Assembly: GCF_009789195.1 (NCBI RefSeq)
Contig: NZ_WSTC01000006.1
Location: 8,126-72,125 of the forward strand
Length of the DNA stretch: 64,000 bases
Direction: 5' to 3'
From: Paenibacillus sp. MMS18-CY102
GTDB taxonomy: Bacteria; Bacillota; Bacilli; Paenibacillales; Paenibacillaceae
Shown here: one piece after another, positions 36,627 through 60,332 of the stretch
Position numbering within the stretch: position 1 is the stretch's first letter
Layout: every line of letters begins with the position of its first letter
Notes under the pieces: generated by a model
The model's input: the letters and a program-made list of their open reading frames with translations, nothing else
The model's database searches: none
What the model was told of the DNA's origin: nothing
Position numbers and translations under genes: made by a program

Positions 36627-36645
36627 TCAATGTGATGCGTTAAAA

Positions 36646-39013: not shown

Positions 39014-39029
39014 ATGATCGGCATTTCAA

Positions 39030-39062
39030 CTCCCCTTGGGGAAGTTGGAATGCTTTTTTTGT
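39030..39062 (+). terminator. rho-independent terminator
   Basis: caactcccc-ttg-gggaagttg hairpin followed by T7. Confidence 0.45.
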
Positions 39063-39064
39063 TC

Positions 39065-42798: not shown

Positions 42799-42827
42799 GA
42801 AGAACGGGCAATGAAGAGAACAAACGG

Positions 42828-44423: not shown

Positions 44424-45472
44424 TGGGCTGGTCGTTCAGGGAGGATTCCGTAATCGTTGAAGAAGAATACAGAAGCCGGTTTTGTTGCGAGTTGTATCAA
44501 GCGGGGACTAATAACGTGCCTAATCTTTTCTTTCAACAAAATGAACCTTACGGAGAATGCATCAGTTACCGGTCGCTGGTTATTCCTAAGGACCGATATA
44601 TGAGTGTTTCCGGTGAGTTGAGGAACCTTATTAAATCGGATTTGGCTTACAAAAGAGAGCTTCATTCGATTACGTGGAGTACGCTGAAGAAATTTTCTAA
44701 AATGGCCTACGCCTTGGAGAGAGGCGTAAAATCAGAGACGGTGACCCCTGAATTTTTGGATTATGCTGTGCGTATATGTGGGGAGACATTAGGGTTGTGT
44801 GAGTTTAACGGCGCATTGCCAGTCACATGGTATCGCTCCAAGCTTGAGGAAATCAGTGCGATGGGACCTCATAACATTGAATTAGAACATTTTTATTACT
44901 CAGAAGTCATGCCTCACCGGCTGCTGGTGCGCATGGGAAAACTATTGCTCTTGAAGGAATACTTTTCTCACAATGGCCAAGTATCTGGGGATGCCATCGA
45001 GCATTTCATCCGAAGGTTTGGGCTACATGATCCAGAGTGGTCCGATCCATTGGCTTTGAGGCAGTGGCAGAGAAAAGAATATATCGTTCGGGAGATTCAA
45101 ACTATGGCTAAGCAAATGTCGATGGAGATGGTTAAGTTCGAGCTTGATCAGCTAATAAGCAATCGAATCGACAGCACAATCAGATATCGGCAGAAGCTGG
45201 CACAAGTCGCTGAAAATATGCTGGCCAACGATAGGAGCAAGGCAGAAATCTATAATTTTATTAGCGCGTTGGCCGTCGTCTCTTTAGCGACTACGGAAGA
45301 GGAGTATCGGCATATTATTCAAGACCATTTTTGGCGAAGTATCGGACAAATCGCTAGAGCGCTTGATCTGCCTACCGCAGTCATTTCCCGTGAAGATTTG
45401 TTGAGTTCGTTTGCGAAGCGAAGGAGAACGGCGTTTCATTTCTCGCGTAACCCTCGAATGGAGTGTGTGTAG
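44423..45472 (+). CDS. hypothetical protein (349 aa), translationally coupled to the upstream phosphotransferase
   Basis: ATG overlaps the upstream stop; AGGAAAGGAG RBS. No motif recognised. Confidence 0.4.
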   Translation: MGWSFREDSVIVEEEYRSRFCCELYQAGTNNVPNLFFQQNEPYGECISYRSLVIPKDRYMSVSGELRNLIKSDLAYKRELHSITWSTLKKFSKMAYALERGVKSETVTPEFLDYAVRICGETLGLCEFNGALPVTWYRSKLEEISAMGPHNIELEHFYYSEVMPHRLLVRMGKLLLLKEYFSHNGQVSGDAIEHFIRRFGLHDPEWSDPLALRQWQRKEYIVREIQTMAKQMSMEMVKFELDQLISNRIDSTIRYRQKLAQVAENMLANDRSKAEIYNFISALAVVSLATTEEEYRHIIQDHFWRSIGQIARALDLPTAVISREDLLSSFAKRRRTAFHFSRNPRMECV

Positions 45473-46471
45473 ATGAGCAAAGTATTAGTCGTCGGTGGAG
45501 CCGGTTATATTGGCTCAGTTTTGTTGGAGCAACTAGTGGAGCAAAACTATGAAGTTACCATTGTGGATACTTTTTTGTATGGCAAAACGGCTATTCCCAA
45601 AGCATGTGTGACTGTGCAGTCCGATATGAAGCATCTGGATCCGAATATCATGCGGGATCATGAGGCGGTTATTAATTTAGGAGGCTTTTCGAATGATCCG
45701 ACAGCTAACTACAATCCCGAAACGAATTGGGAGTTAAACACCCATTGTGCTGTCGCATTAGCTGAAATGTGCAGGAGCCAGGGGATACCGAAATATATTT
45801 TGGCAAGTTCCTGTTCGTTATATGACCGTCAAAACCTGGACAGTGATTCGGATGAGTTGTTGTCGGAGACCAGCCGGATTCAACCGGTCGGCCATTATTC
45901 GCAATCGAAATTCGCAGCGGAGAACAGCATTAACCGTTTGCGAACGGCCGAATTTACGCCCATCATCCTGAGGAAAGGGACAGTGTTTGGGCTTTCGCCG
46001 CGCATGAGGTTTGATCTTGTGGTGAACACGATGATCAAAGATGCCATTGTAAAGGGCAAAATCTGCTTGCACAAAGGGGGCGAAATGTGGCGCCCAATGA
46101 TCGAGGTAAAAGATGTTGCCCATGCGTATATCCGAGCACTTCAAACCAATATTGGGCTAGAAGATAATATTTTTAATATAAGTTATAAGAATTTTCGGAT
46201 TTCTGAAGTAGGTCTTCGAGTCATTAACGAATTGAAACGGCAAGGATGCGAATGCGAGATCGAAATGGACTATTCCCTCGAAACGACACGCAATTATCGG
46301 GTTAATAACAGCAAAGCTAGGGAAGTTCTTGGTTTCTCGCCTTCTATTGAAATCGAACAGGCCGTCGCGGACATCTATCAAAAATATAAAGCGAATTTTG
46401 AAGAACTGATGCATCCGAGACAATACAATATCGAGTGGATGAAATTGGTCAGTCTCGTAAAATCTTCGTAA
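45473..46471 (+). CDS. NAD-dependent epimerase/dehydratase (extended SDR; nucleotide-sugar 4-epimerase/4,6-dehydratase-like)
   Basis: N-terminal VLVVGGAGYIGSVLLEQL Rossmann motif and a YxxxK-type active-site region (YSQSK). Confidence 0.7.
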   Translation: MSKVLVVGGAGYIGSVLLEQLVEQNYEVTIVDTFLYGKTAIPKACVTVQSDMKHLDPNIMRDHEAVINLGGFSNDPTANYNPETNWELNTHCAVALAEMCRSQGIPKYILASSCSLYDRQNLDSDSDELLSETSRIQPVGHYSQSKFAAENSINRLRTAEFTPIILRKGTVFGLSPRMRFDLVVNTMIKDAIVKGKICLHKGGEMWRPMIEVKDVAHAYIRALQTNIGLEDNIFNISYKNFRISEVGLRVINELKRQGCECEIEMDYSLETTRNYRVNNSKAREVLGFSPSIEIEQAVADIYQKYKANFEELMHPRQYNIEWMKLVSLVKSS

Positions 46472-46487
46472 TAGGAGAGAGGGCATT

Positions 46488-46994
46488 ATGGATCACATGA
46501 CATTCGAAAATAAAGCATTATATAAACAAAAACCGAATCATGCCACCATACAAGGGGTGAAGTTTAAAGAACTGGCCGCCCGAACGGATAACCGAGGCTG
46601 GCTAACGGAACTGTTGAGGGAAGATTCAGAGGATTATATTCCTTTTGGGCAACTTTATCTCGTTAACAATTATCAGGCTAATGTTATTCGCGCATTTCAT
46701 ATGCATTTTGAACAAGATGAGGTGTTTTTCGTTACAAACGGCGTGATTCAATTCATTCTTGTGGACGAACGGGCAGAGAGTCCCACGTATAAGCATTTGA
46801 ATAGTTTTGTGATGGATGCAAGCCGGCCAATGGCTCTATGGGTGCCAAGAGGAATTCAGCACGGTTCAATGGCTTTGATGAATGGATCACAAATTACAGC
46901 AGTTACAACGCAGCCTTACAATGCTGAAAAGCCGGATGAGTTGAGGAGGCCATCTGATTATTATGGGCAAATATGGGGGCTAGGCGGATGGTGA
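46488..46994 (+). CDS. cupin-fold nucleotide-sugar epimerase/ketoisomerase (RmlC/FdtA/WxcM-like)
   Basis: QLYLVNNYQANVIRAFHMH and a cupin barrel; size (168 aa) fits the dTDP-sugar 3,5-epimerase / 3,4-ketoisomerase families. Confidence 0.5.
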   Translation: MDHMTFENKALYKQKPNHATIQGVKFKELAARTDNRGWLTELLREDSEDYIPFGQLYLVNNYQANVIRAFHMHFEQDEVFFVTNGVIQFILVDERAESPTYKHLNSFVMDASRPMALWVPRGIQHGSMALMNGSQITAVTTQPYNAEKPDELRRPSDYYGQIWGLGGW

Positions 46995-47851
46995 AAAAAA
47001 TTGCGATTCTTGGAGCAGCCGGAATGCTTGGAAAAGCGTTTGCCCAGAGGCTTGAACCTGGAAAATTTCATGTGACGGCGTTGGCTAAAAACCAATTGGA
47101 TGTAACGGATGCAATAGCTGTTGCGGATGCCCTGCGATCACTAAAGCCCGACTTGGTGATCAACGTGTCCGCTTTTATGAATGCTGACCGCTGCGAGAAA
47201 TTCCCGGAAAAAGCATTTCTCGTGAATGCGTTGGGCGCAAGAAACGTTTCAAATATATGTGAGGAAATTAAAGCGGCGCATCTTTGGTTCAGTTCCGATT
47301 TTGTATTCGATGGTTATACCAACAAGCCATACAGTGAGCATGATGGGACAAACCCGTTATCGGTCTATGGCATGACCAAATTAAACGGCGAGACTGCGAT
47401 TAAGAATCATTGTTCCAGGCATTTTATTATCAGAACGTCCTCGCTGTACGGTGTCCAAGGGAGTAATTTCATTGAACGAATGCTGGAGCGCGTTCAGCAA
47501 GGATTGAACGTCGAAGTTGTGGATGATTTGTTTATTTCACCAACCTATGTCGAGGACTTGGTTCGCATCTCCATTGATATTTGGGAGCAGGGTTTAAGCT
47601 ACGGCACCTACCACGCAGCCAATGAAGGCGTGACATCCTGGCATGGCCTTTTAGAGGAAGTTTTTCGTTTCTTGGATCTAAAGCAGAGAATCGAGCCTAT
47701 TTCAATAAGCCAACGTGTTAACGATTTGAATCTTGCGCGAAGACCGATTTATTCGGCACTCAGCAGCAAAAAGCTGAGTGAAGCAGGCATTGCAAACGCC
47801 AGTTGGCAGGAAAGTGTCGGCCGGTATTTGATCGCCAGAAATTATAGATGA
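46988..47851 (+). CDS. dTDP-4-dehydrorhamnose-reductase-like (RmlD-type SDR)
   Basis: KKIAILGAAGMLGKAF N-terminus and RmlD-like length. The start overlaps the upstream gene. Confidence 0.6.
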   Translation: MVKKIAILGAAGMLGKAFAQRLEPGKFHVTALAKNQLDVTDAIAVADALRSLKPDLVINVSAFMNADRCEKFPEKAFLVNALGARNVSNICEEIKAAHLWFSSDFVFDGYTNKPYSEHDGTNPLSVYGMTKLNGETAIKNHCSRHFIIRTSSLYGVQGSNFIERMLERVQQGLNVEVVDDLFISPTYVEDLVRISIDIWEQGLSYGTYHAANEGVTSWHGLLEEVFRFLDLKQRIEPISISQRVNDLNLARRPIYSALSSKKLSEAGIANASWQESVGRYLIARNYR

Positions 47852-47864
47852 AGGATGGTGCCGC

Positions 47865-48644
47865 TTGAAAGTAGGGTTGATTGTGAGCACGGGATTTGAC
47901 CTATCGAAAATAGCAGAGCAATGGGATGGCATCAATTGTGAGACGCAATGGGGCAATATCCCTTTCCGTAAAGCTAACGTAGGCGACCTAACGATCTATG
48001 CGGCTACCCGGAACGGGGCAAGCTCATGCGTCCCTCCGCATAAGGTCAATTACAAGGGAATTATGGCATCCTTTAAGAAACTCGGCATAGCCCAGATTGT
48101 ATCCTCTTCCGTTGTAGGTTCGTTAAATCCGGATATTCGGCCAGGAGACGTTGTAATACTAGATCAGTTTTTGGATTTTACTAAACGTACGCCGTTTACG
48201 GCTTTTGAGCATGAGTTTGCCTTTTGCGATTTTACGGAGCCCTACTGTTCGCGCCTACGAGCGCTTCTGATTGGCGTGTGTGGCCAATTAGAAATCGAGC
48301 ATCATAAGTCGGGCTGTTATGTCGGCGTTGATGGTCCAAGGTATGAGACCGCTGCTGAAGTTAGGATGTTTCACCGGCTTGGAGGAGACGTAGTAGGCAT
48401 GACCAATGTGCAAGAATGCATCATGGCCCGTGAGAGTGGGATTTGTTACTCCTCTGCTGCTTTAGTGGTGAATTATGGGGCTGGCATTGCTGGTCCAGTA
48501 ACGAGAAAGGATTGTTATGAACAAACATTAAAAAAGATCGGTGAACTGGAGGATCTCATAGCCGGGGTAATCGTTCAATTGAGAAACGTTCATGTTGAAT
48601 GCAGTTGTTCGCAAGTGCCATTGGATTTGATTACATACAAATAA
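47865..48644 (+). CDS. 5'-methylthioadenosine/purine-nucleoside phosphorylase family protein (MTAP/MtnP-like)
   Basis: Long collinear match to MTAP. HKVNYKGIMASFKKLGIAQIVSSSVVGSLNPDIRPGDVVILDQFLDFT aligns with [48 protein letters not shown]. Also GVDGPRYETAAEVRMFHRLGGDVVGMTNVQE. Confidence 0.75.
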   Translation: MKVGLIVSTGFDLSKIAEQWDGINCETQWGNIPFRKANVGDLTIYAATRNGASSCVPPHKVNYKGIMASFKKLGIAQIVSSSVVGSLNPDIRPGDVVILDQFLDFTKRTPFTAFEHEFAFCDFTEPYCSRLRALLIGVCGQLEIEHHKSGCYVGVDGPRYETAAEVRMFHRLGGDVVGMTNVQECIMARESGICYSSAALVVNYGAGIAGPVTRKDCYEQTLKKIGELEDLIAGVIVQLRNVHVECSCSQVPLDLITYK

Positions 48645-48696
48645 AGGCTGGAGGCTTGCTTGGATGCAGGCGAAAAAGTACAAGGGAGGAACCCCC

Positions 48697-50670
48697 ATGG
48701 AGCCCATGTTACAATCGCTTCTTGATCCTGCCGTCATGGAGTTGCGTGATCGAACAGGCAATAAAGCTTACTTCCTGAGTGTCATGCTGCAAGGAGGTTA
48801 CCGTGTTCCCGAGGGTTATGTGCTGCGCAATGATTTTCTCGACCAGCTAATCGCCAAGGCAGGGTTAACTGAGGAATTCCAACTGCTGTTGCGCTCGGAA
48901 CAGGTTCTTAACCGGTTTGCCAAGCTGCAGAAGATGATTGCCAGCCTCCCCTACGCTGATGAAGATAGGATGATGCTGCTAGAAGTGAAAAGAAAGCTCG
49001 GAGGGAATATAGTCATTCGAAGCTCGGCGCCAGGAGAAGATGGAGCCAACTCCAGCATGGCGGGCTTATATACCTCCTATACGAATATTACAGATGATAA
49101 CGAATGCCTGCAGTGTGTGTTGAATTGTTTTGCTTCGGCCTATACGCAAGGAGTGTATACACAAAATCATTTTGGCGAAGGTACGGCTATCGTGATGCAA
49201 ACGTTTGTTGATTTTGAAATTGGCGGCGTGGCTTTTAGCCAAGATATATATAGCGATGGAAACGAAATGCTGCTCAATTACAAAGTTGGCGGTATCGAAG
49301 GGGTCGTTAGCGGCCAGCATTCGGGATTTTCTGCCAGAGTTCCACGAACAGGCGATATGCCAATCCTTGCGCATTTGGAACGTGAACAGGTTGCCATGCT
49401 TCTGAATTGGGGACAGGAATTCGAACAACTCGTTGGAGGGGCGGTTGATTTTGAATGGGGGCTCTGTGAGGGGAATTTATACTGCGTGCAGTTGCGCCCG
49501 GTTACATCACTCCGAGGATCGCTGGATGTTCCTGCCATTGTAGATATTGATGACGTAAAGGCTTGCTCACGTTTAAATCTAGGTGTTTTGAAAGAAAAGC
49601 ATATGCGTTGGTTTGATAAGAAGCATCATGTTCGTAAAATGTGTAAGGCATTAGGCATTCGAGTGACGAACGTGCGTTACGTAATTAGCCCTGCTGGGGA
49701 GCCTGCTATTGTGGGTGCCATCAATGATGTGCTGTCGGCTATGGAAACTCCTTATATCGAAGCGTATGATGGTGATCGTTTCACGATCCTTTGTAGAGAA
49801 CAATTATTGCAATATGCCAAAGACAAAAGCCAGGGTTTCCAAGAAGAACTTAAAATACTCGTTCAAGAGTTTACGAGTACAGTCTATTGCGGTTATGCCA
49901 GCATCGATAAGGATGGGCTCGTTTACGTTGAAACCTTGCCTGGAGGATTTCGGACGTTCTGGCTAGATGGGGCAACGCCCACCACATATTTAGTAACGGT
50001 TGACGGCGAGGCGGTAAAAGAAAAAATACAGACTGTTACTGGATATTTTGATTTTTGTTCTGAATCCAAAGATTTTGAACCTATTCATCCAGAAAAACCG
50101 TTCATGCATGGCTTAGAAGAAAAACAATTAAAAGAAATAGCTGATATGACAGGGAATCTTTCCCGCAAACTGGGGGAGGTTCGCATTGAATGGGTATTTG
50201 ATGGCAATCACATTCGGTTCTTTGATCTATCGGAGGAGACCAGGCCGCTGGTTGAAACGTTGGGATTGGGCAATATGTTGTCGACAGGTTTTGCAGCGGG
50301 ACAGGTTTGTATTCTTGATGATATCGATACCTTCGATGTTCTCTTCAACGACATTATTAGCGAGATTGATGTCGTGCCTAAAGCGTCTTTTAACAAGACG
50401 GTTCATTCGGATCGTTGCCAAGCGATGATTGAGGAGCTGCTGCAAGGCAAGGAGAGCCCAATCGTCGTCGCGGAATACCCTAAACGGACGCTTGCTGTAT
50501 TGGCGGACTACGTATCAGGGTTTATTTTCGAACGTGGGGCTCTTCTATGCCATCTCGCAATTATTTTGAGAGAGAAACAAGTGCCAGCGGTCGTGGTTGA
50601 AGATGCAAGGGAGACCTTGCGTACGATCAAAAATGTACGCATTGCCGAAGGGGATGTCGCAGTTTTCTGA
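48697..50670 (+). CDS. second PEP-synthase-like phosphotransferase (ATP-grasp-type N-domain + phosphohistidine swivel domain)
   Basis: N-terminal GNKAYFLSVMLQGGYRVPEGYVL. C-terminal VVAEYPKRTLAVLADYVSGFIFERGALLCHLAIILREKQVPAVVV with the conserved His. Start MEPML after an AAGGGAGGAA RBS. Confidence 0.6.
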   Translation: MEPMLQSLLDPAVMELRDRTGNKAYFLSVMLQGGYRVPEGYVLRNDFLDQLIAKAGLTEEFQLLLRSEQVLNRFAKLQKMIASLPYADEDRMMLLEVKRKLGGNIVIRSSAPGEDGANSSMAGLYTSYTNITDDNECLQCVLNCFASAYTQGVYTQNHFGEGTAIVMQTFVDFEIGGVAFSQDIYSDGNEMLLNYKVGGIEGVVSGQHSGFSARVPRTGDMPILAHLEREQVAMLLNWGQEFEQLVGGAVDFEWGLCEGNLYCVQLRPVTSLRGSLDVPAIVDIDDVKACSRLNLGVLKEKHMRWFDKKHHVRKMCKALGIRVTNVRYVISPAGEPAIVGAINDVLSAMETPYIEAYDGDRFTILCREQLLQYAKDKSQGFQEELKILVQEFTSTVYCGYASIDKDGLVYVETLPGGFRTFWLDGATPTTYLVTVDGEAVKEKIQTVTGYFDFCSESKDFEPIHPEKPFMHGLEEKQLKEIADMTGNLSRKLGEVRIEWVFDGNHIRFFDLSEETRPLVETLGLGNMLSTGFAAGQVCILDDIDTFDVLFNDIISEIDVVPKASFNKTVHSDRCQAMIEELLQGKESPIVVAEYPKRTLAVLADYVSGFIFERGALLCHLAIILREKQVPAVVVEDARETLRTIKNVRIAEGDVAVF

Positions 50671-50694
50671 TGCCACTGGGGAGAGTGAACAAGC

Positions 50695-51354
50695 ATGACA
50701 TGGAACGAATTCATTAAAGGTTTAGAAAGCTTGGATTGGAAGCAAGACACGCCTGAAACCTTCAATAAAGTGGAGGCACTCTTAAAAGGCATCTCACAAA
50801 ATCCCGAAGAGTTGGAGAAGAGATGCCAAGAAATTGTTTCTAATCCAGATCTCTTGCAGAACTATAAACCTCACATGAGCTATCCTAACAAGATCATGGA
50901 TATATTTGTTCTTTATCTTGCGCCTGACAACGGTTTCGCAGTACGGATGCACAGGCTGAAGACGAAGCAGGATAACGCTCATAAAATCCCTCAAGTGCAC
51001 AGCCATGAATGGTCCTATTCGACTCTTATACTGAAAGGTTCTTATCAGGAAAGAAACTATCAGGTAAATTCGATGTCGGAGGAAAACCATACGGCGCAAT
51101 TGGCGTTAATCGAGGATCACGTATTAACAGCAAACGAAATCAATACGGGCATGGCGGGCACCCCGCATATCACTATTAATCATGAAGAAGAGAGCTGCAT
51201 CACTTTATTTGTAAGAGGGAACTTCCAAGGGACAGGCTTTAAAGTCTATCAAATGGAAGAGGGTACCTTCACGTTTAGCGATGGAAAATTCAAGCAGGCA
51301 GAGGAGACTGTCCTTTGCCGGGAACTTATGCGCATCGGCCGACTACAATCTTGA
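50695..51354 (+). CDS. cupin-fold protein, cysteine-dioxygenase-type-I-like (HxH motif)
   Basis: IPQVHSHEWSYSTLILKGSYQE resembles the CDO-type metal-binding HxH...L.G motif. Weak assignment. Confidence 0.35.
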   Translation: MTWNEFIKGLESLDWKQDTPETFNKVEALLKGISQNPEELEKRCQEIVSNPDLLQNYKPHMSYPNKIMDIFVLYLAPDNGFAVRMHRLKTKQDNAHKIPQVHSHEWSYSTLILKGSYQERNYQVNSMSEENHTAQLALIEDHVLTANEINTGMAGTPHITINHEEESCITLFVRGNFQGTGFKVYQMEEGTFTFSDGKFKQAEETVLCRELMRIGRLQS

Positions 51355-51373
51355 CAGAAGTGGAGAGCACATC

Positions 51374-53011
51374 ATGTATGTACTTGGATTGAATTGCGGC
51401 AAACATGACTCTTCTGCCGCATTGGTAAAGGATGGGCAGTTGATCGCTATGGCTGAGCAGGAACGATTCAGCCGGAATAAAAGGGCTGTGGGTGAAGCGC
51501 CGGTTGATGCGATTTTATTTTGTCTCACTAAAGCTGGAATCGGGCTGGAGGACGTGAACGCTGTTGCTTTGGGCTGGAATTATTCCCGCACGCGTGAATT
51601 GTACAACGAGCCGGCGGATGGAAGGGACCAGAGAGAGGTTCTGTTTCCTAAATCAGTGTTTAAGGCAACGGCGATTCCTCCGATTATGCCTGTCGATCAT
51701 CATTTAGCCCATGCAGCTAGTGCATTCTGGCCAAGCGGGTTTAAGGAATCTGCCATTCTGGTTGTTGACGGCGGTGGGGAAACGGAATCAACAACAATCG
51801 CATACGGAAATGGAAACGGCATTCAGGTTCTTGAATCTCTTCCCTTGCCAGGTTCATTGGGACACTACTATGCAGCGGCGACCCGTTATGTTGGCATGAA
51901 GGCAAGGCATGCCGGGAAGATGATGGGGCTTGCTGCATACGGGAAGCCGGATCAGGCTATGCCGCTTTCTGTCGATGAAACTGGCCTGAATTGGCGGGGG
52001 TTATCTGAGTTAGAGCATTCTGGATCCTACTCCGCAATGGAGTCGTTTCGAGCAGCATTGGAAGACCATTTCGAACAGAATTGTTTTCCTTTTAAAAAAG
52101 GGACAGGAGAAGATCTATTCGCCTATGTATCCTTTGCAGCATCTGCCCAGAAGTCGTTAGAAGAGGCAATTTTGTCGTTGGCGGAACGGGCATGTTCCTT
52201 AACGAAACAGCGAAATATCGTGCTTGCCGGCGGGGTAGCGCTGAACTGCAGCGCCAATGGCAAGCTGGCCCGATCTGGCATTGCCAATAACCTATTTGTT
52301 CAACCTGCAGCGAGTGATTCAGGTGTTTCTTGGGGGGCTGCGCTAGTACTATCGCAGCGATTGGGCGTTAATATGCAGAGTGAAGCGATGCGGCATGCCT
52401 ATTGGGGACCAGATTATAGCCACTGTGACATCGAGGCCAGCCTGAATGATGCACAACTTAAATTTGAACGGCTTACCCATGAAGAGCTCATCGAACAGGT
52501 TGCTATGTGCCTACATCATAAAAAGATCGTCGGGTGGTTTCAGGGTCGAGCGGAAATCGGGCCGCGTGCCCTGGGGGCGCGGAGCATTCTCGGAAATCCA
52601 ACTGACCGGGATACACTAATTCGTTTAAATAGAATCAAGTGCCGTGAGATGTGGCGGCCTTTTGCGCCTAGTGTGGCAGAAGAGAGTTTCCATCACTATT
52701 TTGACAGCCCTCATCCTTCTCCGTTTATGATTGTCGCCGCCAAGGTTCATGAATCCATGCGCAAGAGAATTCCTGCAGTCGTACACGCAGATGGCACAGC
52801 ACGCCCTCAATCGGTACGCAGGGAAGATAATGAACTTTATTGGAAACTGCTTCAGAAATTCGGCGAATACAGTGGAATGCCGGTCCTTGTGAACACCTCG
52901 TTTAATTTGGATAAAGAACCGATCGTACACACGCCGGGGCAAGCAATAACTGATTTTATCAATACGGAGATGGACGTGCTGGCCATCGGCAACTATATAG
53001 TGAGGAAGTAA
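51374..53011 (+). CDS. NodU/CmcH-family carbamoyltransferase (TobZ/NovN-like)
   Basis: N-terminus MYVLGLNCGKHDSSAALVKDGQLIAMAEQERFSRNK and a C-terminal YrdC-like region, typical of O/N-carbamoyltransferases. Confidence 0.75.
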   Translation: MYVLGLNCGKHDSSAALVKDGQLIAMAEQERFSRNKRAVGEAPVDAILFCLTKAGIGLEDVNAVALGWNYSRTRELYNEPADGRDQREVLFPKSVFKATAIPPIMPVDHHLAHAASAFWPSGFKESAILVVDGGGETESTTIAYGNGNGIQVLESLPLPGSLGHYYAAATRYVGMKARHAGKMMGLAAYGKPDQAMPLSVDETGLNWRGLSELEHSGSYSAMESFRAALEDHFEQNCFPFKKGTGEDLFAYVSFAASAQKSLEEAILSLAERACSLTKQRNIVLAGGVALNCSANGKLARSGIANNLFVQPAASDSGVSWGAALVLSQRLGVNMQSEAMRHAYWGPDYSHCDIEASLNDAQLKFERLTHEELIEQVAMCLHHKKIVGWFQGRAEIGPRALGARSILGNPTDRDTLIRLNRIKCREMWRPFAPSVAEESFHHYFDSPHPSPFMIVAAKVHESMRKRIPAVVHADGTARPQSVRREDNELYWKLLQKFGEYSGMPVLVNTSFNLDKEPIVHTPGQAITDFINTEMDVLAIGNYIVRK

Positions 53012-53025
53012 GGGGTGATTTTACG

Positions 53026-53997
53026 GTGTTCGATCGTATCATCGACCGGGTGGGAAACACTCCGTTGCTTAAAATTCCGATTCAGGATTTGCCCACGGTG
53101 AATGTTTACAGCAAGTTGGAATTTCATAATCCGACAGGCAGCGTTAAAGATAGAGCGGCAAGTTATATCCTTCACAAATTAATAGAAGACAAAGAAATTG
53201 TGCCTGGCGATACGATAATCGAGTCTACTTCGGGAAATTTCGGAATTGCTCTGGCCGTTTTCACGCAAGCTTTGGGCTACAGATTTATTTGTGTAATCGA
53301 CCCGAATATTTCGGAAGTAAATGAATTTTTGATCCGAAAATTTTGTCCGAATGTAATAAAGGTATCCGAGGTCGACGAGAATGGCGGTTATTTGCTAAGT
53401 CGGATTAAAAAGGTGAAACAGTTGCTGAGGGAGATCCCGAATTCGTATTGGATCAATCAGTACAGCAGCGAATATAACGCGGATGCTTATTGCGATACGT
53501 TAGGTGAAGAACTAATAGGTGAGATAGGCCGAATCGACTATTTGTTTTTAGGAGTGAGTTCAGGGGGGACTATTACCGGGGTGTCCCGAAAAATTAAGCA
53601 AATGTTTCCGGATTGTAAGGTCATCGCTGTGGACATTTATGGTTCCGTCATATTCGGGCAGCCTCCAAAGAAACGATACATACCGGGGATTGGCTCCAGT
53701 ATGGTTCCAGAAATTTTGAAGAATGCCCTGATCGACGACGTCATTTATGTTGATGAAGTCGAAACGGTGGAAGGATGTCACGAACTGCTGCAAAGCCATT
53801 ATATTTTTGCAGGAGGCTCGTCGGGATCTGTCTATGTCGCCATAAAAAAATATTTTAAGGATGCAAACATTCAAAATGCGCCTAATGTTGTTACGATTTT
53901 TCCTGATAAGGGAGAGCGTTATTTAAACACCATCTATAACAATGAGTGGTGCAGGCGGCTTATTGCCAATGCATCGAATGAAATCAAATACAGCTAG
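53026..53997 (+). CDS. PLP-dependent cysteine-synthase-family enzyme, SbnA-like
   Basis: NTPLLKI...SKLEFHNPTGSVKDRAASYIL (PLP-Lys motif). Pairs with the next gene. Confidence 0.65.
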   Translation: MFDRIIDRVGNTPLLKIPIQDLPTVNVYSKLEFHNPTGSVKDRAASYILHKLIEDKEIVPGDTIIESTSGNFGIALAVFTQALGYRFICVIDPNISEVNEFLIRKFCPNVIKVSEVDENGGYLLSRIKKVKQLLREIPNSYWINQYSSEYNADAYCDTLGEELIGEIGRIDYLFLGVSSGGTITGVSRKIKQMFPDCKVIAVDIYGSVIFGQPPKKRYIPGIGSSMVPEILKNALIDDVIYVDEVETVEGCHELLQSHYIFAGGSSGSVYVAIKKYFKDANIQNAPNVVTIFPDKGERYLNTIYNNEWCRRLIANASNEIKYS

Positions 53998-54007
53998 GAG
54001 ATGCGCA

Positions 54008-54967
54008 ATGCGCTACTTGAACGAAGAGGATATCAAGTCGATTGGGATGCCGTGGGAAGATCTGATCGCAGCCATTGAGGCTACAGTCGATTGTATGAGA
54101 GCGCATGACTATGTCCAGCCTGTCAAACCGTATTTGAGATACCGTAACCCTGATAATCGAATTATTGCAATGCCTGCATTTGTAGGGGGGGCGGTTGAGG
54201 CGGCGGGCATCAAGTGGATATCTAGCTTTCCAGACAATCATCAAATGCAGCTTCCCAGAGCGCATAGTGTAGTGATACTCAATGAGCCAGATACAGGGCA
54301 ACCTCTAGCCATTATTAATACAGCATTGCTGAGCATTATGAGGACGGTGGCAGTATCCGGTTTCTTCGTCAAGGGCTATATGGCGGCAAGAAAGCCGTGC
54401 AAGGTTAAAGTCGGCATAATAGGCCTTGGCCCGATTGGAACGCATCATTTGAAGTTTTTTGAGGACATTTACGGACAATGGATAGATGCTTTTTTGCTTT
54501 ATGACGAAAACCCGATGAAGCTGGACGGCTTAATGGATAGGGATCGCATGACAATAACACCAACATGGGAAGAAGCGTACATTGAGGCTGACATTGTATT
54601 AACATGTACAACAGCTAAGAGGCCTTATATTTGCCTTCCACCCAAGAAAGGGGCGCTTCTCTTAAATGTATCGCTGCGAGATTATGGATCGCAAATATTT
54701 GATTCTGTCGAACATGCAATTATTGTCGATAACTGGACTGAGGTTTGCAGGGAGAATACGGATATTGAAAAGATGCATCTTGAACGAGGATTAAAGGAAG
54801 AGGATACATGCAGCATCACGGATCTGGAGCAGGGCATATGGCATCAATGGCTTGGCGCCGATCACCCGATTATGGTGAACCCGATGGGAATGGCGTCTTT
54901 CGATATTGCAATCGGCAAGTATTATTTGAACAAGGCCATAGAGAAGGGAATTGGAACCATACTTTAG
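54008..54967 (+). CDS. ornithine-cyclodeaminase/mu-crystallin family NAD enzyme, SbnB-like
   Basis: OCD-family size and Rossmann region (KVGIIGLGPIGTHH). Start MRYLNEED after an AGGAG RBS. Confidence 0.65.
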   Translation: MRYLNEEDIKSIGMPWEDLIAAIEATVDCMRAHDYVQPVKPYLRYRNPDNRIIAMPAFVGGAVEAAGIKWISSFPDNHQMQLPRAHSVVILNEPDTGQPLAIINTALLSIMRTVAVSGFFVKGYMAARKPCKVKVGIIGLGPIGTHHLKFFEDIYGQWIDAFLLYDENPMKLDGLMDRDRMTITPTWEEAYIEADIVLTCTTAKRPYICLPPKKGALLLNVSLRDYGSQIFDSVEHAIIVDNWTEVCRENTDIEKMHLERGLKEEDTCSITDLEQGIWHQWLGADHPIMVNPMGMASFDIAIGKYYLNKAIEKGIGTIL

Positions 54968-54983
54968 GACGGAGGATAAAAAG

Positions 54984-56780
54984 GTGGTATCTGTAGACAG
55001 TTCTGCACCCCAACGCATGAAAGAACGGATGATTTTGCGCATCTACTGGTGGGTTCTTTCGTTCTTGTTTCCTTACAAATGGCAGCTGTTAACTGTGCTC
55101 GCATGCAGCATGGTGATTTCTGGAATTGAGCTCGCCATCCCTAAATTTATCGAGCATTTAATTGACCAAATTATGTCCGTCGGCCATTTTTCGAATTTTG
55201 GCGAAACACTCGCTGTGATGGCGGGTTTGCTCATTATTATGTTCGGCATATCTGCCCTGCGGATGCTCGTTCAGCGCCACATGCAGGAAAAGGCTGCTAG
55301 CGATTTGCAATTCCGGATTATTCAGCAACTGCGTACGTTAGGCTATTCTTATTTTGAAAAGCATGCCGTAGGCGAGAGCCTGTCACTCGTGAACACGGAA
55401 TTAAACGCTGTACAAAACATATATCGCAGTGCATTCCCAAGCATGGTCAATGAATTAATATTTGCCGCACTCTCGTTCGGGTTTATGTTTTCGATCCATG
55501 CGGGGTTGTCCTTATTGATCATCCCGTTTTTCGGCCTGTATTATGTGATGGGCCCTTATTTCGAGAAGAAGGCAGCTAACGCGCAAGCGGAATGGGGAGA
55601 GAATCGGATCCGCTACAACCGCAAGATTTACGAGAGCGTGTCGGCGATCTCGGAGCTAAGGGCGAACGGCGCCCAGCCGTGGGACTATCGCCAATTTATG
55701 GACAAGCGCCAGGCGATGGATGACGGGATGGTTCGAACGTTCTGGTATTCCTTCCTGCGCGGTTCTGTACGCCGGTTTTGCAATAATCTCGGGGCTATCG
55801 CAATCTTCATAGTTGGCTTCTATCTCATCAAAGACGGGGCGATCAGCATCGGGGCTTTTACAGCCTTTATGCTGTACTATTTCAACTCGATCTTTAAGCT
55901 AACGGTCGTAGTCACCCTGATCACCGAGCAAAGGCTGCAAATGGTTCAAGCTAAGCGGATTTATGATTTCATGCATCTTGAACCGGAAGTGAAGGAGAAA
56001 GAGAATGCTCGGGCTATTGGCCATGTCGAGGGCAAGATTGATTTTGACCGGGTTTCGTTTCACTATGGCGATGGAAGCCATGCGATTATTCATGATTTTT
56101 CGTTATCGGTCCAAAGCGGGGAGAAGGTTGCGTTGGTTGGATTAAGCGGTGGCGGAAAGTCGACGCTTACTAAATTAATTGGCCGTTTCTATGATCCGAA
56201 ACAGGGTGAGATTCGTCTCGACAATGTCCCCCTGGCCGACATGAAGCTGTCGGATCTGCGAAACAGCATGGGTTTTGTGTTCCAAGATACCTTCTTGTTC
56301 GGAAGCACGATTGAAGAGAACATCAGGTTCGGCAACCCGGATGCATCCGATGAAGAGGTTATAGCAGCGGCTAAGGCAGCGTATGCAGATGAATTTATCC
56401 AACAGCTGCCTATGGGATACGCCACGGTTGTGGGCGAGAGAGGGGTCAAGCTATCTGGCGGCCAGAAACAGCGGATATCAATTGCGCGCATGTTTGTCAA
56501 AAATCCTTCGATCGTCGTTTTGGATGAAGCGACCTCCGCACTCGACAATATAAGCGAGTTAGAAGTGAAGAAAGCATTGGACGCCTTGCTGCAGGGCAGG
56601 ACGACCATTGCTGTCGCACATCGGTTGTCTACGATTGCTAATTACGACCGGATCGTCGTTGTTCATGAGGGGAAAGCAGCCGAGGTTGGCAGCTATAACG
56701 AGTTGCTTGCGTTAGGCGGCATTTTTTATCAAATGGTTCATGGCAACGATTCGACTGCAATACTGCCGGAGGTGATGTGA
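54984..56780 (+). CDS. ABC exporter, fused TMD-NBD (type I exporter half-transporter)
   Basis: Six TM segments then Walker A GLSGGGKST, signature LSGGQKQR and Walker B VVLDEATSALD. GTG start after a GGAGGA RBS. Confidence 0.75.
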   Translation: MVSVDSSAPQRMKERMILRIYWWVLSFLFPYKWQLLTVLACSMVISGIELAIPKFIEHLIDQIMSVGHFSNFGETLAVMAGLLIIMFGISALRMLVQRHMQEKAASDLQFRIIQQLRTLGYSYFEKHAVGESLSLVNTELNAVQNIYRSAFPSMVNELIFAALSFGFMFSIHAGLSLLIIPFFGLYYVMGPYFEKKAANAQAEWGENRIRYNRKIYESVSAISELRANGAQPWDYRQFMDKRQAMDDGMVRTFWYSFLRGSVRRFCNNLGAIAIFIVGFYLIKDGAISIGAFTAFMLYYFNSIFKLTVVVTLITEQRLQMVQAKRIYDFMHLEPEVKEKENARAIGHVEGKIDFDRVSFHYGDGSHAIIHDFSLSVQSGEKVALVGLSGGGKSTLTKLIGRFYDPKQGEIRLDNVPLADMKLSDLRNSMGFVFQDTFLFGSTIEENIRFGNPDASDEEVIAAAKAAYADEFIQQLPMGYATVVGERGVKLSGGQKQRISIARMFVKNPSIVVLDEATSALDNISELEVKKALDALLQGRTTIAVAHRLSTIANYDRIVVVHEGKAAEVGSYNELLALGGIFYQMVHGNDSTAILPEVM

Positions 56781-56784: not shown

Positions 56785-58497
56785 ATGAAATGGTTATTAA
56801 CGTTCATGATGCCAAGGAAATGGTTTCTGTTGTTGTCGATCGGCGTAATGGCCCTAGAATCGATATGCGGCATTCAAGCCGTCGCGCTACAGCAGAAATT
56901 CATTGATTCCGTCATTATTAATCAACAATATGGCCTATTTTGGCCTACGCTTGGGTGGATTTCCGCCGCATTTTTACTTCACGCCTTATTGTTCACGTTA
57001 GGGCCGCACACGACCCATCTGAATATGGCTTACTTTCATAAAAGGCTGGCGGGGCAGTTTATGAAAACGATCTATCGGCTGCCGATGTCCAAATTACGCA
57101 AAGAACGGTCCGGCAGCTATGTGCAATTTTTCTCTAACGATATCGAGAACGTGTATGGATTGCTAGGCAGCGACATCGCGCGGGGCATGCAGCAGCTTAT
57201 TGCGGCCGTCTTGTTAATTGCCATTGTAGCGAAGGCCAATATGATGATGCTAGTTGCCTTATTCTTGTTTATCGTTGTTTACATCGGAATGGGCAAGTAC
57301 TTTTCCTCCAGAATGAAGAAGGCAGCAAGAGCGGTGCAGGAGAATCGGTCGGCACTCGTCGTTCAATTGGAAGAATCGATCTCAGGTACACGGGAAGTTA
57401 TTGCGTTCCACCGGGAAGAGTGGGAGAGAACCCAGTACAAGAACGTATTCCAGCGATACTACGAGAGCATCATGAACGAGGGCAAATGGCTGAATAAACA
57501 GATGCTTGCAACAGATCCTTTTAAATGGGCGATGAAGCTGCTCGTGATCGTATATGGCGGATACCTTGTCATCAATCATTCGTTGTCTATCGGCATGTTT
57601 GTTGTTGTCTTTCAGCTTACTTCTATGCTGGGGGACACCTGCCAAAGCTTGTTCAACACCGTCATGGGATTGTCTGGAAGAATGGCGAGCGTGGAGAGGG
57701 TTAGAGAGGCGTTAGAGGAAAATATGTTTGATCCTGGCTCTGAGCCTTTAGAAGGTAAAGTATCCTCCTTACGGTTTCAACAGGTTGGCTTTACGTACGA
57801 ATCCGAGGAACAGCAGGTGCTGCATGAGGTTACCTTGGATATGCCGATGGGCAAAAAGATCGCGTTCGTTGGGGCGAGCGGCAGCGGCAAATCAACGGTT
57901 GCCCACTTGCTCTCGCGTTTCTTTGAACCTGGTTCGGGCGAGATTGTTGTCAATGGGATGGATTTAAAAGACATTCGGCGGGATGCGTGGACGGAGCATA
58001 TCGGCATCGTGTTTCAGGACCCGTATATTTTCCCGGATTCCATCGCTAACAATATTAAGCTAGGGCTTGATGCAACTGAGGAGCAAATCACAAAGGTTTG
58101 CCAAGCGGTTGAAATTGATGAACATATCCGCAGCCTTCCGCTGCAGTATGAAACGCCGCTCGGGGAGAGAGGAATGACCTTGTCTGGCGGGCAGCGCCAG
58201 CGAATTGCGCTAGCGCGGGCCCTGCTTCGGGATCCTGAAATATTGATTTTGGACGAAGCCACGTCAGCGCTTGATCTCGAAACGGAGCGAACGTTCCAGC
58301 GAAACCTGGATACGTTAAGGGAAGGCAAGACGACAATCATAATCGCGCATCGGCTGTCGACCATCGAGAATGCAGATGTCATTTATGTCATGCAGAAGGG
58401 CCGGATTGTAGATGCAGGAACGCATGAGGAGCTTATGAGCGAGAGCCGGGCATATCATTCGCTGCTAGCGGCTCACGCGGAGCTGCAGGTGTCTTGA
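56785..58497 (+). CDS. ABC exporter, fused TMD-NBD (partner half-transporter)
   Basis: Walker A GASGSGKST, LSGGQRQR and ILDEATSALD. The gene lies 4 nt after the previous gene. Confidence 0.75.
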   Translation: MKWLLTFMMPRKWFLLLSIGVMALESICGIQAVALQQKFIDSVIINQQYGLFWPTLGWISAAFLLHALLFTLGPHTTHLNMAYFHKRLAGQFMKTIYRLPMSKLRKERSGSYVQFFSNDIENVYGLLGSDIARGMQQLIAAVLLIAIVAKANMMMLVALFLFIVVYIGMGKYFSSRMKKAARAVQENRSALVVQLEESISGTREVIAFHREEWERTQYKNVFQRYYESIMNEGKWLNKQMLATDPFKWAMKLLVIVYGGYLVINHSLSIGMFVVVFQLTSMLGDTCQSLFNTVMGLSGRMASVERVREALEENMFDPGSEPLEGKVSSLRFQQVGFTYESEEQQVLHEVTLDMPMGKKIAFVGASGSGKSTVAHLLSRFFEPGSGEIVVNGMDLKDIRRDAWTEHIGIVFQDPYIFPDSIANNIKLGLDATEEQITKVCQAVEIDEHIRSLPLQYETPLGERGMTLSGGQRQRIALARALLRDPEILILDEATSALDLETERTFQRNLDTLREGKTTIIIAHRLSTIENADVIYVMQKGRIVDAGTHEELMSESRAYHSLLAAHAELQVS

Positions 58498-58522: not shown

Positions 58523-60070
58523 GTGAACGTGTTGAGGCAGTTACTGTTACATATAAAAAATGTTAAAGACAGTTATCCATTAGATTATGTAACCTGTTTC
58601 GAAAAGCCGGTAGCTATTGCAGCAGAAGGAATGAAGAGAGATTCATTCTTTCTGGTGTATATGTATCTGAAGTTTATGCGGGCGTATCATACTAATCTAG
58701 CTTCAGAACAGCACATAGACCGTTGGTCCAATACTTTCCCGCATTTAGGGCTAAAAGTTAATGTCATTCCGGTTAATGCCGCGAATCTGATCGACAACAT
58801 TGTGAAAGAGCTCGATGAGGGGCGCCCTGTTTTGGTGGGGGGCGACTTAAATCAATTGTATTATTCCTATCACTACGAAGAATCACATTGGCCTCATTTG
58901 TTTTTGATCCGGGGGTATGAAGACAAAAAGAAAGTATTGCATATTATCGATGGCTGCCAGAAGAAAACAGATGAGCACTTGTATGAAGAATTTGTAATGG
59001 AATATGAGACGCTTCATAAAGTGTTTCAAGCTGGTGCGGAATCTTACGGATACGATGTAATTTACTCGATTGAGGCGGATCCCAAGCAATACTCGATAAA
59101 GGAAAAGCTCATTCAATTTATCGATTTTATGGATCAATACCGTACGGACCAACCTTTCAAAGAGTTAGATATTATGAAAAAAAATGTGGCTAATTCTGCA
59201 TCCCTTGCCAAAGGGGATTTGGATAAAGTGAATTTTGAACTGATGAAGATTACTAAGCATAAGAAAGTGCTGTACAGTGAGTTGTTTCGAATGCTGGAAG
59301 GGACACTGCCGGATGAGGCACGTAATGGCCTGGACCAGCTTCTGGCTGCCTGGAAACTTGCTATTAGCAAGTTTGTCCTAGCTTGCCATAGGAAAAAAGA
59401 GATCGATTGCGCGGAATTAGTACAGTTACCGCTTCAATATGAACAAATGGTGTATGATGCTGTTCTAACAGCGAGAAGTGTTCTTGAGAGGGAACAAGAG
59501 CGGGTGGAACCTTCTCAAACCGAGTGGATGACTGAAAATAACGAAGATGGTATCCTCCATATCCTCCATAACAGAAGTTTTCACTTTCATTTTCGTGGCG
59601 ATAAAACCTATAACTCATGGATCACCGATGACTCACCGAAGTTATTTTTTAAATCCTTACAAAACAATAATCTAGCAAAAGATTTTACTATTCAGGTTGA
59701 GTTGGAAGTTGTCGGCAAGAGCAGGGATTTGTCCTATCATGCAGGTTTTGTGCTCAGAACAAAGACGGGGGACATGTACTTTTGGGGGATGAATTGCGGG
59801 GAGTCTTTGATGCTTTCGCATATTGGCAACACCAATATTGCTGTTGAGGTACTGGAACATGACTCGGTTGGGCTGCTAATTGAAAAAGAGCACGACTGTT
59901 ACCATTTCAGCTATAGGCAAGAGGGCAAAGTGAATCGTATTAGTGCTTTGAACAATTTGGATGTTGCTGAAATTGGCCTCGTCTGCAAAACCTGGGATGA
60001 AGCAAACGAACTTAGCGTCCATTTTACAGGGCTAACAGCTACATCTTCTTTGAATGAAACGCTTATTTAG
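58523..60070 (+). CDS. hypothetical protein (515 aa); possibly a BtrH-like carrier-protein-dependent acyltransferase
   Basis: Only its position, immediately upstream of the PCP/A/dehydrogenase genes, and vague similarity to the BtrH_N family support this. Low confidence in the family call. Confidence 0.35.
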   Translation: MNVLRQLLLHIKNVKDSYPLDYVTCFEKPVAIAAEGMKRDSFFLVYMYLKFMRAYHTNLASEQHIDRWSNTFPHLGLKVNVIPVNAANLIDNIVKELDEGRPVLVGGDLNQLYYSYHYEESHWPHLFLIRGYEDKKKVLHIIDGCQKKTDEHLYEEFVMEYETLHKVFQAGAESYGYDVIYSIEADPKQYSIKEKLIQFIDFMDQYRTDQPFKELDIMKKNVANSASLAKGDLDKVNFELMKITKHKKVLYSELFRMLEGTLPDEARNGLDQLLAAWKLAISKFVLACHRKKEIDCAELVQLPLQYEQMVYDAVLTARSVLEREQERVEPSQTEWMTENNEDGILHILHNRSFHFHFRGDKTYNSWITDDSPKLFFKSLQNNNLAKDFTIQVELEVVGKSRDLSYHAGFVLRTKTGDMYFWGMNCGESLMLSHIGNTNIAVEVLEHDSVGLLIEKEHDCYHFSYRQEGKVNRISALNNLDVAEIGLVCKTWDEANELSVHFTGLTATSSLNETLI

Positions 60071-60092
60071 AAAATAACGGTAAGGTGATGGG

Positions 60093-60329
60093 ATGATGAC
60101 TCCACAATTTTTTGAAATTATTAGCCAGTATTTAGAGAAGGCAGATGAGATCGATCCTGAAGAAGAACTCGTTTCATTGGGCCTAGACTCCTTGAAGGTG
60201 ATCAACCTCGTGTTGGATCTTGAGGATGCGTTTGGCATTGAGTTTCCCGACCGCTATCTTAATGAGGAGACTTTCCGGACTTCAATATCTTTATGGAATA
60301 CGATAACTGCGATCAAAGACAATCAGTAA
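60093..60329 (+). CDS. stand-alone peptidyl/acyl carrier protein
   Basis: 78 aa; phosphopantetheine attachment motif LGLDSLKVINL. Confidence 0.65.
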   Translation: MMTPQFFEIISQYLEKADEIDPEEELVSLGLDSLKVINLVLDLEDAFGIEFPDRYLNEETFRTSISLWNTITAIKDNQ

Positions 60330-60332
60330 CCA

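Follow-up and report, generated by a model that had tools for sequence, protein, structure and literature searches.

A predicted L-2,3-diaminopropionate module beside a TobZ-like carbamoyltransferase in a probable orphan gene cluster of Paenibacillus sp. MMS18-CY102

In the staphyloferrin B operon of Staphylococcus aureus (PDB 5D84, 4M54), L-2,3-diaminopropionate (L-Dap) is made by a two-enzyme route encoded in the order sbnA-sbnB, in the company of siderophore synthetases of the NIS type (i.e., independent of non-ribosomal peptide synthetases, NRPSs). The zwittermicin A cluster (Bacillus thuringiensis pBMB426 and B. cereus pBCA1) ends with the same two genes, preceded by a gene for an 'ornithine carbamoyltransferase' of the OTCase type, and this trio makes beta-ureidoalanine (PMC4581275, PMC6022934). 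More broadly, the carbamoylation of Dap in zwittermicin, viomycin, and capreomycin falls to transcarbamylases of the OTCase/ATCase (ornithine/aspartate carbamoyltransferase) family (PMC4581275, PMC6022934). Another type of carbamoyltransferase is represented by TobZ (nebramycin/tobramycin 6''-O-carbamoyltransferase, 3VEN) and NovN (noviose 3-O-carbamoyltransferase, 9S2T). In the present work, we describe a 64,000-nucleotide stretch of DNA from Paenibacillus sp. MMS18-CY102 (hereafter, the window) in which an enzyme of the latter type is encoded immediately upstream of an SbnA/SbnB-like pair, an adjacency from which the original prediction derived a carbamoylated L-Dap building block. Our analysis supports the Dap route, places the carbamoyltransferase among sugar and nucleoside genes instead, and leads us to regard the region from 42013 to beyond 64000 as, on balance, probably a single orphan cluster in which a carbamoyltransferase-containing core cassette is joined to a module for Dap supply and loading.

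The three focal genes all lie on the forward strand and encode a TobZ/NodU/CmcH-type carbamoyltransferase with Kae1-like and YrdC-like domains (51374-53011; assigned from Pfam, PDB relatives, and clade), SbnA, a pyridoxal 5'-phosphate (PLP)-dependent N-(2-amino-2-carboxyethyl)-L-glutamate (ACEGA) synthase (53026-53997; TIGR03945, PDB 5d84, and conserved residues), and an SbnB-family NAD-dependent enzyme with a predicted role in the release of L-Dap and 2-oxoglutarate (54008-54967; TIGR03944 and PDB 4m54). They belong to an array of forward-strand genes that spans 42013 to the end of the window with short gaps or overlaps, the sole sizeable gap being one of 262 nt (60071-60332). The distances before the carbamoyltransferase, sbnA, and sbnB genes are 19, 14, and 10 nt, respectively, and a Shine-Dalgarno-like box is present at every start; because of these tight gaps, the boxes, and the common strand, the adjacency is real and operonic. 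The trio is thus present and translationally coupled rather than a reading-frame artefact, and NCBI lists proteins of MMS18-CY102 that match the 545-aa carbamoyltransferase (ATG at 51374) and the 323-aa PLP enzyme with 100% identity. The longest open reading frame (ORF) for sbnB begins at 53942; since the match to SbnB and TIGR03944 starts only with residue 23, and the ATG at 54008 is preceded, at 7 nt, by an AGGAG box, the gene most likely covers 54008-54967. A consensus scan for promoter- and terminator-like sites returned no excess over the number expected from shuffled sequence.

The PLP enzyme is a member of the PALP family (Pfam, 3.6e-61) that passes the SbnA equivalog model TIGR03945 (398.8 bits vs. 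a cutoff of 349.95), while its scores on the rival CysK (203.6 bits), CysM (162.3 bits), and CBS (202.3 bits) models each fall under the respective cutoffs. Among PDB chains, S. aureus SbnA (5d84) ranks first at 278 bits, with 45% identity over 307 aligned residues; the next chain, a CBS, scores 172 bits, which no other CBS or CysK chain exceeds, and CmnB from the capreomycin pathway scores 143.5 bits. In S. aureus SbnA, Lys47 bears the PLP, and Arg132, Tyr152, and Ser185 are reported to confer selective O-phospho-L-serine binding (PMC12414870). By alignment count, all four residues are kept in the window enzyme, as K41, R126, Y146, and S178. NCBI already annotates this protein as SbnA.

The partner enzyme falls 27 bits short of the TIGR03944 equivalog cutoff for SbnB (299.6 vs. 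326.9 bits), yet this model outscores all others by a wide margin: the runner-up, for tyramine oxidase subunit B, gives 93 bits, and the model for true ornithine cyclodeaminase (OCD) gives 32 bits. Its best PDB match is SbnB itself (4m54; 147.5 bits, 5.1e-42), ahead of pyrroline-2-carboxylate reductase and alanine dehydrogenase as the next families (65 bits, 4e-17), and the NAD(H) dinucleotide motif, GLGPIG in the window, aligns with GCGLIG of SbnB. Identity to the SbnB genes of B. cereus, B. thuringiensis, and Brevibacillus laterosporus is 48-50%; against the zwittermicin copies specifically, it is 52% for SbnA and 48-49% for SbnB. The PLP enzyme therefore groups with SbnA rather than with CysK or CysM, and its neighbour with SbnB rather than with ornithine cyclodeaminases, so that the two-gene L-Dap route named in the original prediction can be taken as real. 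On these sequence grounds, the pair is almost certainly an SbnA/SbnB-type L-Dap route, an assignment that appears well supported and that in part already stands in the public annotation.

SbnA-then-SbnB pairing was seen in four other contexts (L018/L020, L019, L022, and L023), and close SbnA homologues elsewhere (61-63% identity) have an OCD-family gene directly downstream. One of these contexts, on plasmid unnamed2 of Br. laterosporus B9 (L019, 13000-40924), is an NRPS cluster without annotation in which sbnA (20001-20924) and sbnB (33529-34491) are separated by approximately 12.6 kb that include NRPS genes. Another, from a Bacillota metagenome-assembled genome (L022; DATALN010000468.1, 3961-12914), encodes SbnA and SbnB followed by a protein of unknown function, a GNAT acetyltransferase, argininosuccinate lyase-like and argininosuccinate synthase-like enzymes, a peptidyl carrier protein (PCP), and a large NRPS-polyketide synthase (PKS) protein. 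Its argininosuccinate synthase/lyase-like enzymes point to ureido-to-guanidino chemistry on a unit derived from Dap; no carbamoyltransferase was found in the part of this locus that was read.

The 545-aa carbamoyltransferase contains both domains of its family (Carbam_trans_N, 8e-48; Carbam_trans_C, 6e-66), with secondary matches to TsaD and Sua5_yciO_yrdC, and Pfam detects no OTCase domain in it. It is unrelated to the zwittermicin carbamoyltransferase, a protein of approximately 310 aa from the ornithine carbamoyltransferase family. Its top PDB relatives are TobZ (1e-110, over the full length), NovN (2e-87), and GdmN (2e-77); the best solved relatives are all O-carbamoyltransferases acting on sugars or polyketide hydroxyls, with TobZ and NovN representing the sugar type. 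Both domains and the catalytic sites are common to TobZ, NovN, and the window enzyme. The HD, HHLAH, SD(S/I)GVS, and NTSFN motifs are identical to those of TobZ in the alignment, and the PDB variant 3vf4 differs only in reading NTAFN; we take these motifs to hold the metal-site His/His/Asp and the YrdC-site Ser. With 183.7 bits against a cutoff of 1000 on the NodU equivalog NF041651, the enzyme belongs to the wider family and is not NodU itself.

Among 5.8 billion protein clusters, the closest homologue of the carbamoyltransferase is P0002 (59% identity), encoded on a metagenomic contig (L011), followed by P0003 (57%) from a second such contig (L015) and P0106 (57% over 77% of the query) from Paenibacillus sp. 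598K. When 66 homologues were placed in a neighbour-joining tree, one four-member clade united these three proteins with the window enzyme. The next relatives (52-53%) adjoin GT4 glycosyltransferases, and a contig scan with the carbamoyltransferase reached only distant loci of Actinomycetota (36-49% identity), which share no further genes with the window. At one further locus (L013), a tRNA-synt_2b gene comes after the carbamoyltransferase homologue.

All three clade-mates are embedded in versions of the same cassette, a very rare one that has been seen at only about four loci. In 20.6 kb of L011, P0002 is accompanied by homologues of ten window genes from 42013-53011 (a 219-aa conserved protein, PPDK2, the P-loop protein, the MTAP-like enzyme, a 366-aa conserved protein, the carbamoyltransferase, SDR, PPDK1, RmlC-like, and RmlD, each described below) and by an additional NTP-transferase; neither SbnA nor SbnB was found in these 20.6 kb. 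Around P0003 (L015; Logan SRR25547260_89852, 328-11119) are PPDK2-like, P-loop, and MTAP-like genes. The other neighbours encode radical-SAM, GFO/IDH/MocA, zinc alcohol dehydrogenase, APH-kinase, methyltransferase, and dethiobiotin-synthetase-like (weak AAA_26) proteins, a set reminiscent, by analogy, of cyclitol or aminoglycoside tailoring. P0106 is found on the same contig of Paenibacillus sp. 598K (L021; BFBX01000054.1) as homologues of PPDK1, the 366-aa protein, PPDK2, the 219-aa protein, an ABC pair, SDR, and RmlC-like. In a presence/absence table that covers the parts read of 17 related loci, SbnA, the BtrH_N protein, the A domain, and the acyl-CoA-dehydrogenase-fold enzyme of the window are all without a homologue. 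Two metagenome searches with the RmlC-like gene as a marker for the cassette gave nothing beyond the contig of L011, a tblastn search of plasmids with PPDK2 gave only partial matches at approximately 30% identity, and no relevant literature was found on the strain or on this combination of genes.

The decisive evidence is thus comparative: judged by gene neighbourhoods, the conserved partners of the carbamoyltransferase appear to be sugar and nucleoside genes, not Dap genes. Since its clade-mates sit in cassettes in which no SbnA was found, carbamoylated Dap is not the likeliest product, and the Dap module would be specific to MMS18-CY102 among the cassette loci compared. TobZ and NovN offer a parallel insofar as the window enzyme is likewise associated with sugar-tailoring genes, although the genes linked to its clade are of the PPDK-like, MTAP-like, and P-loop kinds and not those for aminoglycosides or aminocoumarins. 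At the same time, sbnA and sbnB are flanked by the carbamoyltransferase upstream and by an ABC pair downstream, both of which have counterparts in the 598K cassette; given this flanking on both sides and the tight coupling, we read the region as one cluster and not as two neighbours.

The cassette itself opens with a 261-aa P-loop protein resembling nucleoside or nucleotide kinases (42013-42798; weak matches to AAA_18, E 0.001, and dTMP kinase, 6.5e-4), with homologues in L011 (37%) and L015 (32%). Next come PPDK1, a first enzyme resembling phosphoenolpyruvate (PEP) synthase and rifampin phosphotransferase (RPH) (42828-44423; PPDK_N 5e-35, PEP-utilizers 1.3e-11; 41% in L011, 37% in L021), and the 366-aa conserved protein (44423-45472; 349 aa by the NCBI start), which has no Pfam or NCBIfam match, only a chance-level carboxylesterase hit in a PDB sequence search (E 0.089), and just three relatives among the 5.8 billion clusters (36% in L011, 35% in L021). 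Three sugar-type genes follow: an NAD-dependent epimerase/dehydratase of the short-chain dehydrogenase/reductase (SDR) type (45473-46471; Epimerase 4.7e-32; 46% in L011, 53% in L021), an RmlC-like cupin that appears to be a divergent sugar 3,5-epimerase (46488-46994; dTDP_sugar_isom 9.7e-19, with just 46.5 bits on TIGR01221 against a cutoff of 155.75; 69% in L011, 62% in L021), and an RmlD-type 4-ketoreductase (46973-47851; TIGR01214, 265.8 bits vs. a cutoff of 224.05; 40% in L011). The remaining members upstream of the carbamoyltransferase are an MTAP-like nucleoside phosphorylase (47865-48644; PNP_UDP_1 2.7e-37; 181 bits on TIGR01694, under its 274.85 cutoff; best PDB chain the MTAP 2a8y, 6e-38; 35% in L011, 44% in L015), PPDK2, the second rifampin-phosphotransferase-like enzyme (48664-50670; 47% in L011, 51% in L021, 27% in L015), and the 219-aa conserved protein (50695-51354; no family match; 38% in L011, 47% in L021).

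PPDK2 consists of an N-terminal ATP-grasp domain (PPDK_N, residues 30-219), a long middle section without a match, and a C-terminal His domain (PEP-utilizers, residues 597-653). Both PPDK enzymes share with the rifampin phosphotransferase RPH-Lm (5HV3/5FBT) an architecture of ATP-grasp and swivelling His domains and have no PEP-binding barrel; unlike RPH, they score far under the RPH family cutoffs. The model of the 366-aa protein is mostly helical (predicted local distance difference test, pLDDT, 66.6), and its best fold match, weak at E 0.03, is to the helical substrate domain of RPH, a hint from modelling that the protein is possibly a substrate-binding partner of the phosphotransferase that precedes it.

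Downstream of the focal trio, the ABC pair consists of two half-type exporters (54951-56780 and 56785-58497), each with ABC_membrane and ABC_tran domains. It is followed by a 515-aa protein with a papain/C39-like BtrH_N domain (58523-60070; 7.6e-10, 39.6 bits vs. a cutoff of 29.7), in which the match is confined to residues 44-143 and for which no sequence relative was found in the PDB. BtrH of the butirosin pathway transfers acyl groups from a carrier protein to an aminoglycoside, and the window shares with that system the BtrH_N domain and the combination of a sugar-type core with a carrier-tethered amino acid, although equivalents of BtrG, BtrI, and BtrJ are lacking. We infer that the BtrH_N protein is a candidate carrier-protein-to-acceptor acyltransferase.

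Next in order is a stand-alone adenylation (A) enzyme (60333-62504; AMP-binding 7.9e-70) with a degenerate N-terminal condensation-domain remnant (Condensation matched over only 50 residues) and no carrier domain. Its pocket code, DIWEMTVDDK, contains three acidic residues. All such codes were read by alignment to motif anchors; for two A domains of the zwittermicin cluster, ZmaJ and one other, the same procedure gave DVWHFSLIDK and DLTKIGEVGK, which we take to be the canonical Ser and Asn codes, respectively. The nearest pocket type, DIWQSTADDK, comes from an A domain in the Br. laterosporus NRPS cluster that bears sbnA/sbnB (38941-40644 of L019; 40% identity). An acidic pocket suits a cationic side chain, so the enzyme is predicted from these residues to activate free Dap rather than the neutral ureido-Dap.

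The A-domain gene overlaps that of an acyl-CoA-dehydrogenase (ACAD)-fold flavoenzyme (62501-63673; Acyl-CoA_dh_N, Acyl-CoA_dh_1), which has weak matches to Rv1679-type ACAD, HpaB-type, DszC-type, and nitrososynthase-type enzymes and is probably a dehydrogenase or a group-D monooxygenase that acts on a carrier-bound amino acid. Seventeen nucleotides further on begins an NTP_transf_5-like gene (63691-64000; E 2.9e-5, 24.2 bits), whose match stays below the cutoff because only 103 aa are visible; since this ORF runs off the window, the cluster extends beyond position 64000. A full NTP_transf_5 gene is present in the 598K cassette, where it lies (11050-13590 of L021) with a truncated gene resembling class II aminoacyl-tRNA synthetases (aaRSs; tRNA-synt_2b) and a gene for a 95-aa PP-binding carrier. 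The latter two look like an amino acid:carrier-protein ligase module that occupies the place of the non-homologous Dap, A-domain, and ACAD genes of the window.

The L-alanosine cluster shares much of this logic, as it is described to contain the SbnA/SbnB homologues AlaA/AlaB, the free-standing Dap A domain AlaC, the PCP AlaL, and the flavoenzyme AlaD, which acts on Dap-S-PCP and for which N-hydroxylation has been proposed; unlike that cluster, the window shows no homologues of the nitrite-forming CreD/CreE and no thioesterase. The zwittermicin cluster was also compared beyond its Dap genes. Its ACAD-family genes reach only 25% identity over 144 aa to the window enzyme, with no close match, and the A-domain codes of its last NRPS (DVFYFGLVCK and DVFYLGGVCK) are unlike that of the window. 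An identification of the whole region as a zwittermicin cluster was therefore rejected: the correspondence is limited to SbnA and SbnB and does not extend to the ACAD and A domains, and the window contains no PKS.

From family membership, catalytic residues, and synteny, we infer the following substrates, carbamoyl acceptor, and order of steps. The cassette, comprising the P-loop protein, PPDK1 and PPDK2, the MTAP-like enzyme, SDR, RmlC-like, and RmlD, the two conserved proteins without a family, the carbamoyltransferase, and probably the ABC pair, would build a phosphorylated or otherwise activated core that is 6-deoxy-sugar-like or nucleoside-derived. The carbamoyltransferase would convert carbamoyl phosphate and ATP to carbamoyl-AMP and pass the carbamoyl group to a hydroxyl of this core, as in TobZ and NovN. 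In parallel, SbnA would condense O-phospho-L-serine with L-glutamate to ACEGA, and SbnB would cleave the adduct oxidatively to L-Dap and 2-oxoglutarate. Free L-Dap would then be loaded by the stand-alone A domain onto a carrier protein, presumably encoded past the window end, modified in its tethered form by the ACAD-fold flavoenzyme, and handed to the core by the BtrH_N protein.

Several other explanations for the carbamoyltransferase deserve weighing against this scheme. The one closest to the original prediction proposes beta-ureidoalanine as the product of the NodU-type enzyme, which would N-carbamoylate L-Dap at its beta-amine, either in free form or on a carrier, and so stand in as a non-homologous replacement for an OTCase. 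Its gene directly adjoins sbnA and is translationally coupled to it, no OTCase-family gene occurs among window ORFs of at least 150 aa, and StdF, a NodU-like enzyme, carbamoylates the epsilon-amine of lysine (2026 preprint, PMC13174530), a precedent that makes N-carbamoylation by this family chemically possible. It had also been claimed that ureido-Dap is known from zwittermicin but not from this gene context; the context does differ, but the order carbamoyltransferase-sbnA-sbnB mirrors that of the zwittermicin trio, and this agreement in order remains the strongest point in favour of an otherwise weakened idea. Against it stand the three clade-mates (57-59% identity), each in a sugar/nucleoside cassette with no SbnA in the parts read, and the lack of SbnA in all 17 related loci; close SbnA/SbnB pairs elsewhere come without a Carbam_trans gene; the best characterised relatives O-carbamoylate sugars or polyketide hydroxyls, while the known Dap carbamoylases are of the OTCase type; and the acidic A-domain pocket suits a cationic side chain and differs from the DVFYFGLVCK/DVFYLGGVCK codes. 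We regard direct carbamoylation of Dap as quite unlikely. A later variant, in which the ACAD-fold enzyme would N-hydroxylate carrier-bound Dap before O-carbamoylation, or in which the Dap part of the finished conjugate would be carbamoylated, draws on the same adjacency to sbnA, on the weak matches of the flavoenzyme to group-D flavin monooxygenases and nitrososynthase, and on the alanosine precedent of Dap-S-PCP and a flavin N-hydroxylase; since no evidence favours monooxygenase over dehydrogenase chemistry for this protein, and the clade-mates of the carbamoyltransferase belong to clusters where no Dap module was found, we judge it highly improbable.

The remaining alternatives concern the boundaries of the locus. 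If two independent clusters abutted here, the cassette with its carbamoyltransferase would make one product, and SbnA/SbnB with the A domain and the ACAD-fold enzyme a separate NRPS-type one; the cassettes of L011 and L015, which show no Dap or NRPS genes, the service of SbnA/SbnB to NRPS clusters elsewhere, and the 262-nt gap upstream of the A-domain gene would all fit. Such an arrangement is nevertheless unlikely, as sbnA and sbnB are nested rather than at an edge, with gaps of 10-14 nt or overlaps around them, the ABC pair beyond them matches that of the 598K cassette in order, an NTP_transf_5-like gene follows the ACAD gene as it occurs inside the 598K cassette, and that cassette holds an analogous amino-acid-loading module of its own. 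Finally, SbnA and SbnB were first defined in a siderophore operon and the Dap that they make might go into general metabolism or a siderophore of the staphyloferrin B type, with no connection to their neighbours; this is scarcely credible, given that the pair sits inside a secondary-metabolite operon of NRPS-like and sugar genes, beside an A domain with a pocket type that is also seen in another sbnA/sbnB-bearing cluster, and that no IucA/IucC-type synthetase or siderophore-uptake gene occurs among the window ORFs of at least 150 aa. The siderophore reading was rejected on the lack of NIS synthetases among those ORFs.

Returning to the single-cluster interpretation, a number of points count against it, besides the zwittermicin-like gene order, the StdF precedent, and the shortfall of SbnB under its equivalog cutoff. 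As L011 and L015 are contigs from metagenomes, the genomes behind them could carry Dap genes at other places, and the reading of the 598K contig stops before its last approximately 13 kb, which include approximately four genes between RmlC and the carbamoyltransferase. The correspondence of the ABC pair to that of 598K (42% and 41% in order, vs. 26% and 32% for the cross-matches) is suggestive and no proof of orthology. The specificity of the A domain is read from pocket residues, and published tools miss Dap even for known Dap A domains. Several cassette proteins have no family; moreover, no recognisable glycosyltransferase occurs in 42013-64000.

Elsewhere in the window, positions 1-42000 hold genes unrelated to the cluster. 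A GATase-then-chorismate-binding fusion (16098-18326, forward strand) and a chorismate-binding-then-GATase fusion (19665-21836, reverse strand) are followed by two class IV aminotransferase (ADC-lyase-like) genes (22217-22930 and 22984-23889); with a weak ALAD-like gene at 14888-16036, the stretch 14888-23889 may represent a second small pathway of the aminobenzoate type. Other genes of possible interest encode a chloramphenicol-phosphotransferase-like P-loop kinase (24912-25553, reverse strand) and an EF-G-binding protein of the FusB/FusC/FusD/FusF family (35973-36626; EF-G-binding_N 7.5e-21; fusF 106.7 bits, far under the 435 cutoff), which could be a fusidic-acid-type target-protection homologue. 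The latter lies in a segment (32001-40000) with a G+C content of 0.51-0.53, compared to 0.38-0.47 across most other parts of the window, together with genes for a SUFU-like protein, an M29 peptidase, a DUF4317 protein, a DNA-alkylation-repair protein, and a catalase. Approximately 320 nt upstream of 42013, a small GNAT acetyltransferase (41229-41690, forward strand), with no counterpart in the related loci, could serve as a self-resistance gene for the cluster product. A GT28/EryCIII-like glycosyltransferase (5378-6625, reverse strand) adjoins a luciferase-like monooxygenase (6653-8029, reverse strand) approximately 34 kb upstream of 42013, with no established link to the cluster.

Taken together, the comparison corrects a tempting inference by adjacency, in that the evolutionary partners of the carbamoyltransferase are not the Dap genes beside it, and SbnA/SbnB pairs are a reliable handle for pathways that use L-Dap, a building block of several antibiotics and siderophores. 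Because its core cassette has no characterised relative, the MMS18-CY102 cluster is a reasonable target for natural product discovery. We tentatively suggest, as a possibility that we hold at somewhat less than even, that the cassette has captured a Dap-supply and carrier-loading module and that its product belongs to a new class of metabolites, derived from a sugar or nucleoside, that are both carbamoylated and aminoacylated and have swappable amino-acid modules. If so, amino-acid-loading modules would be exchanged on a fixed core, with an NRPS-type A domain in MMS18-CY102 and an aaRS-like ligase with its carrier protein in Paenibacillus sp. 598K.

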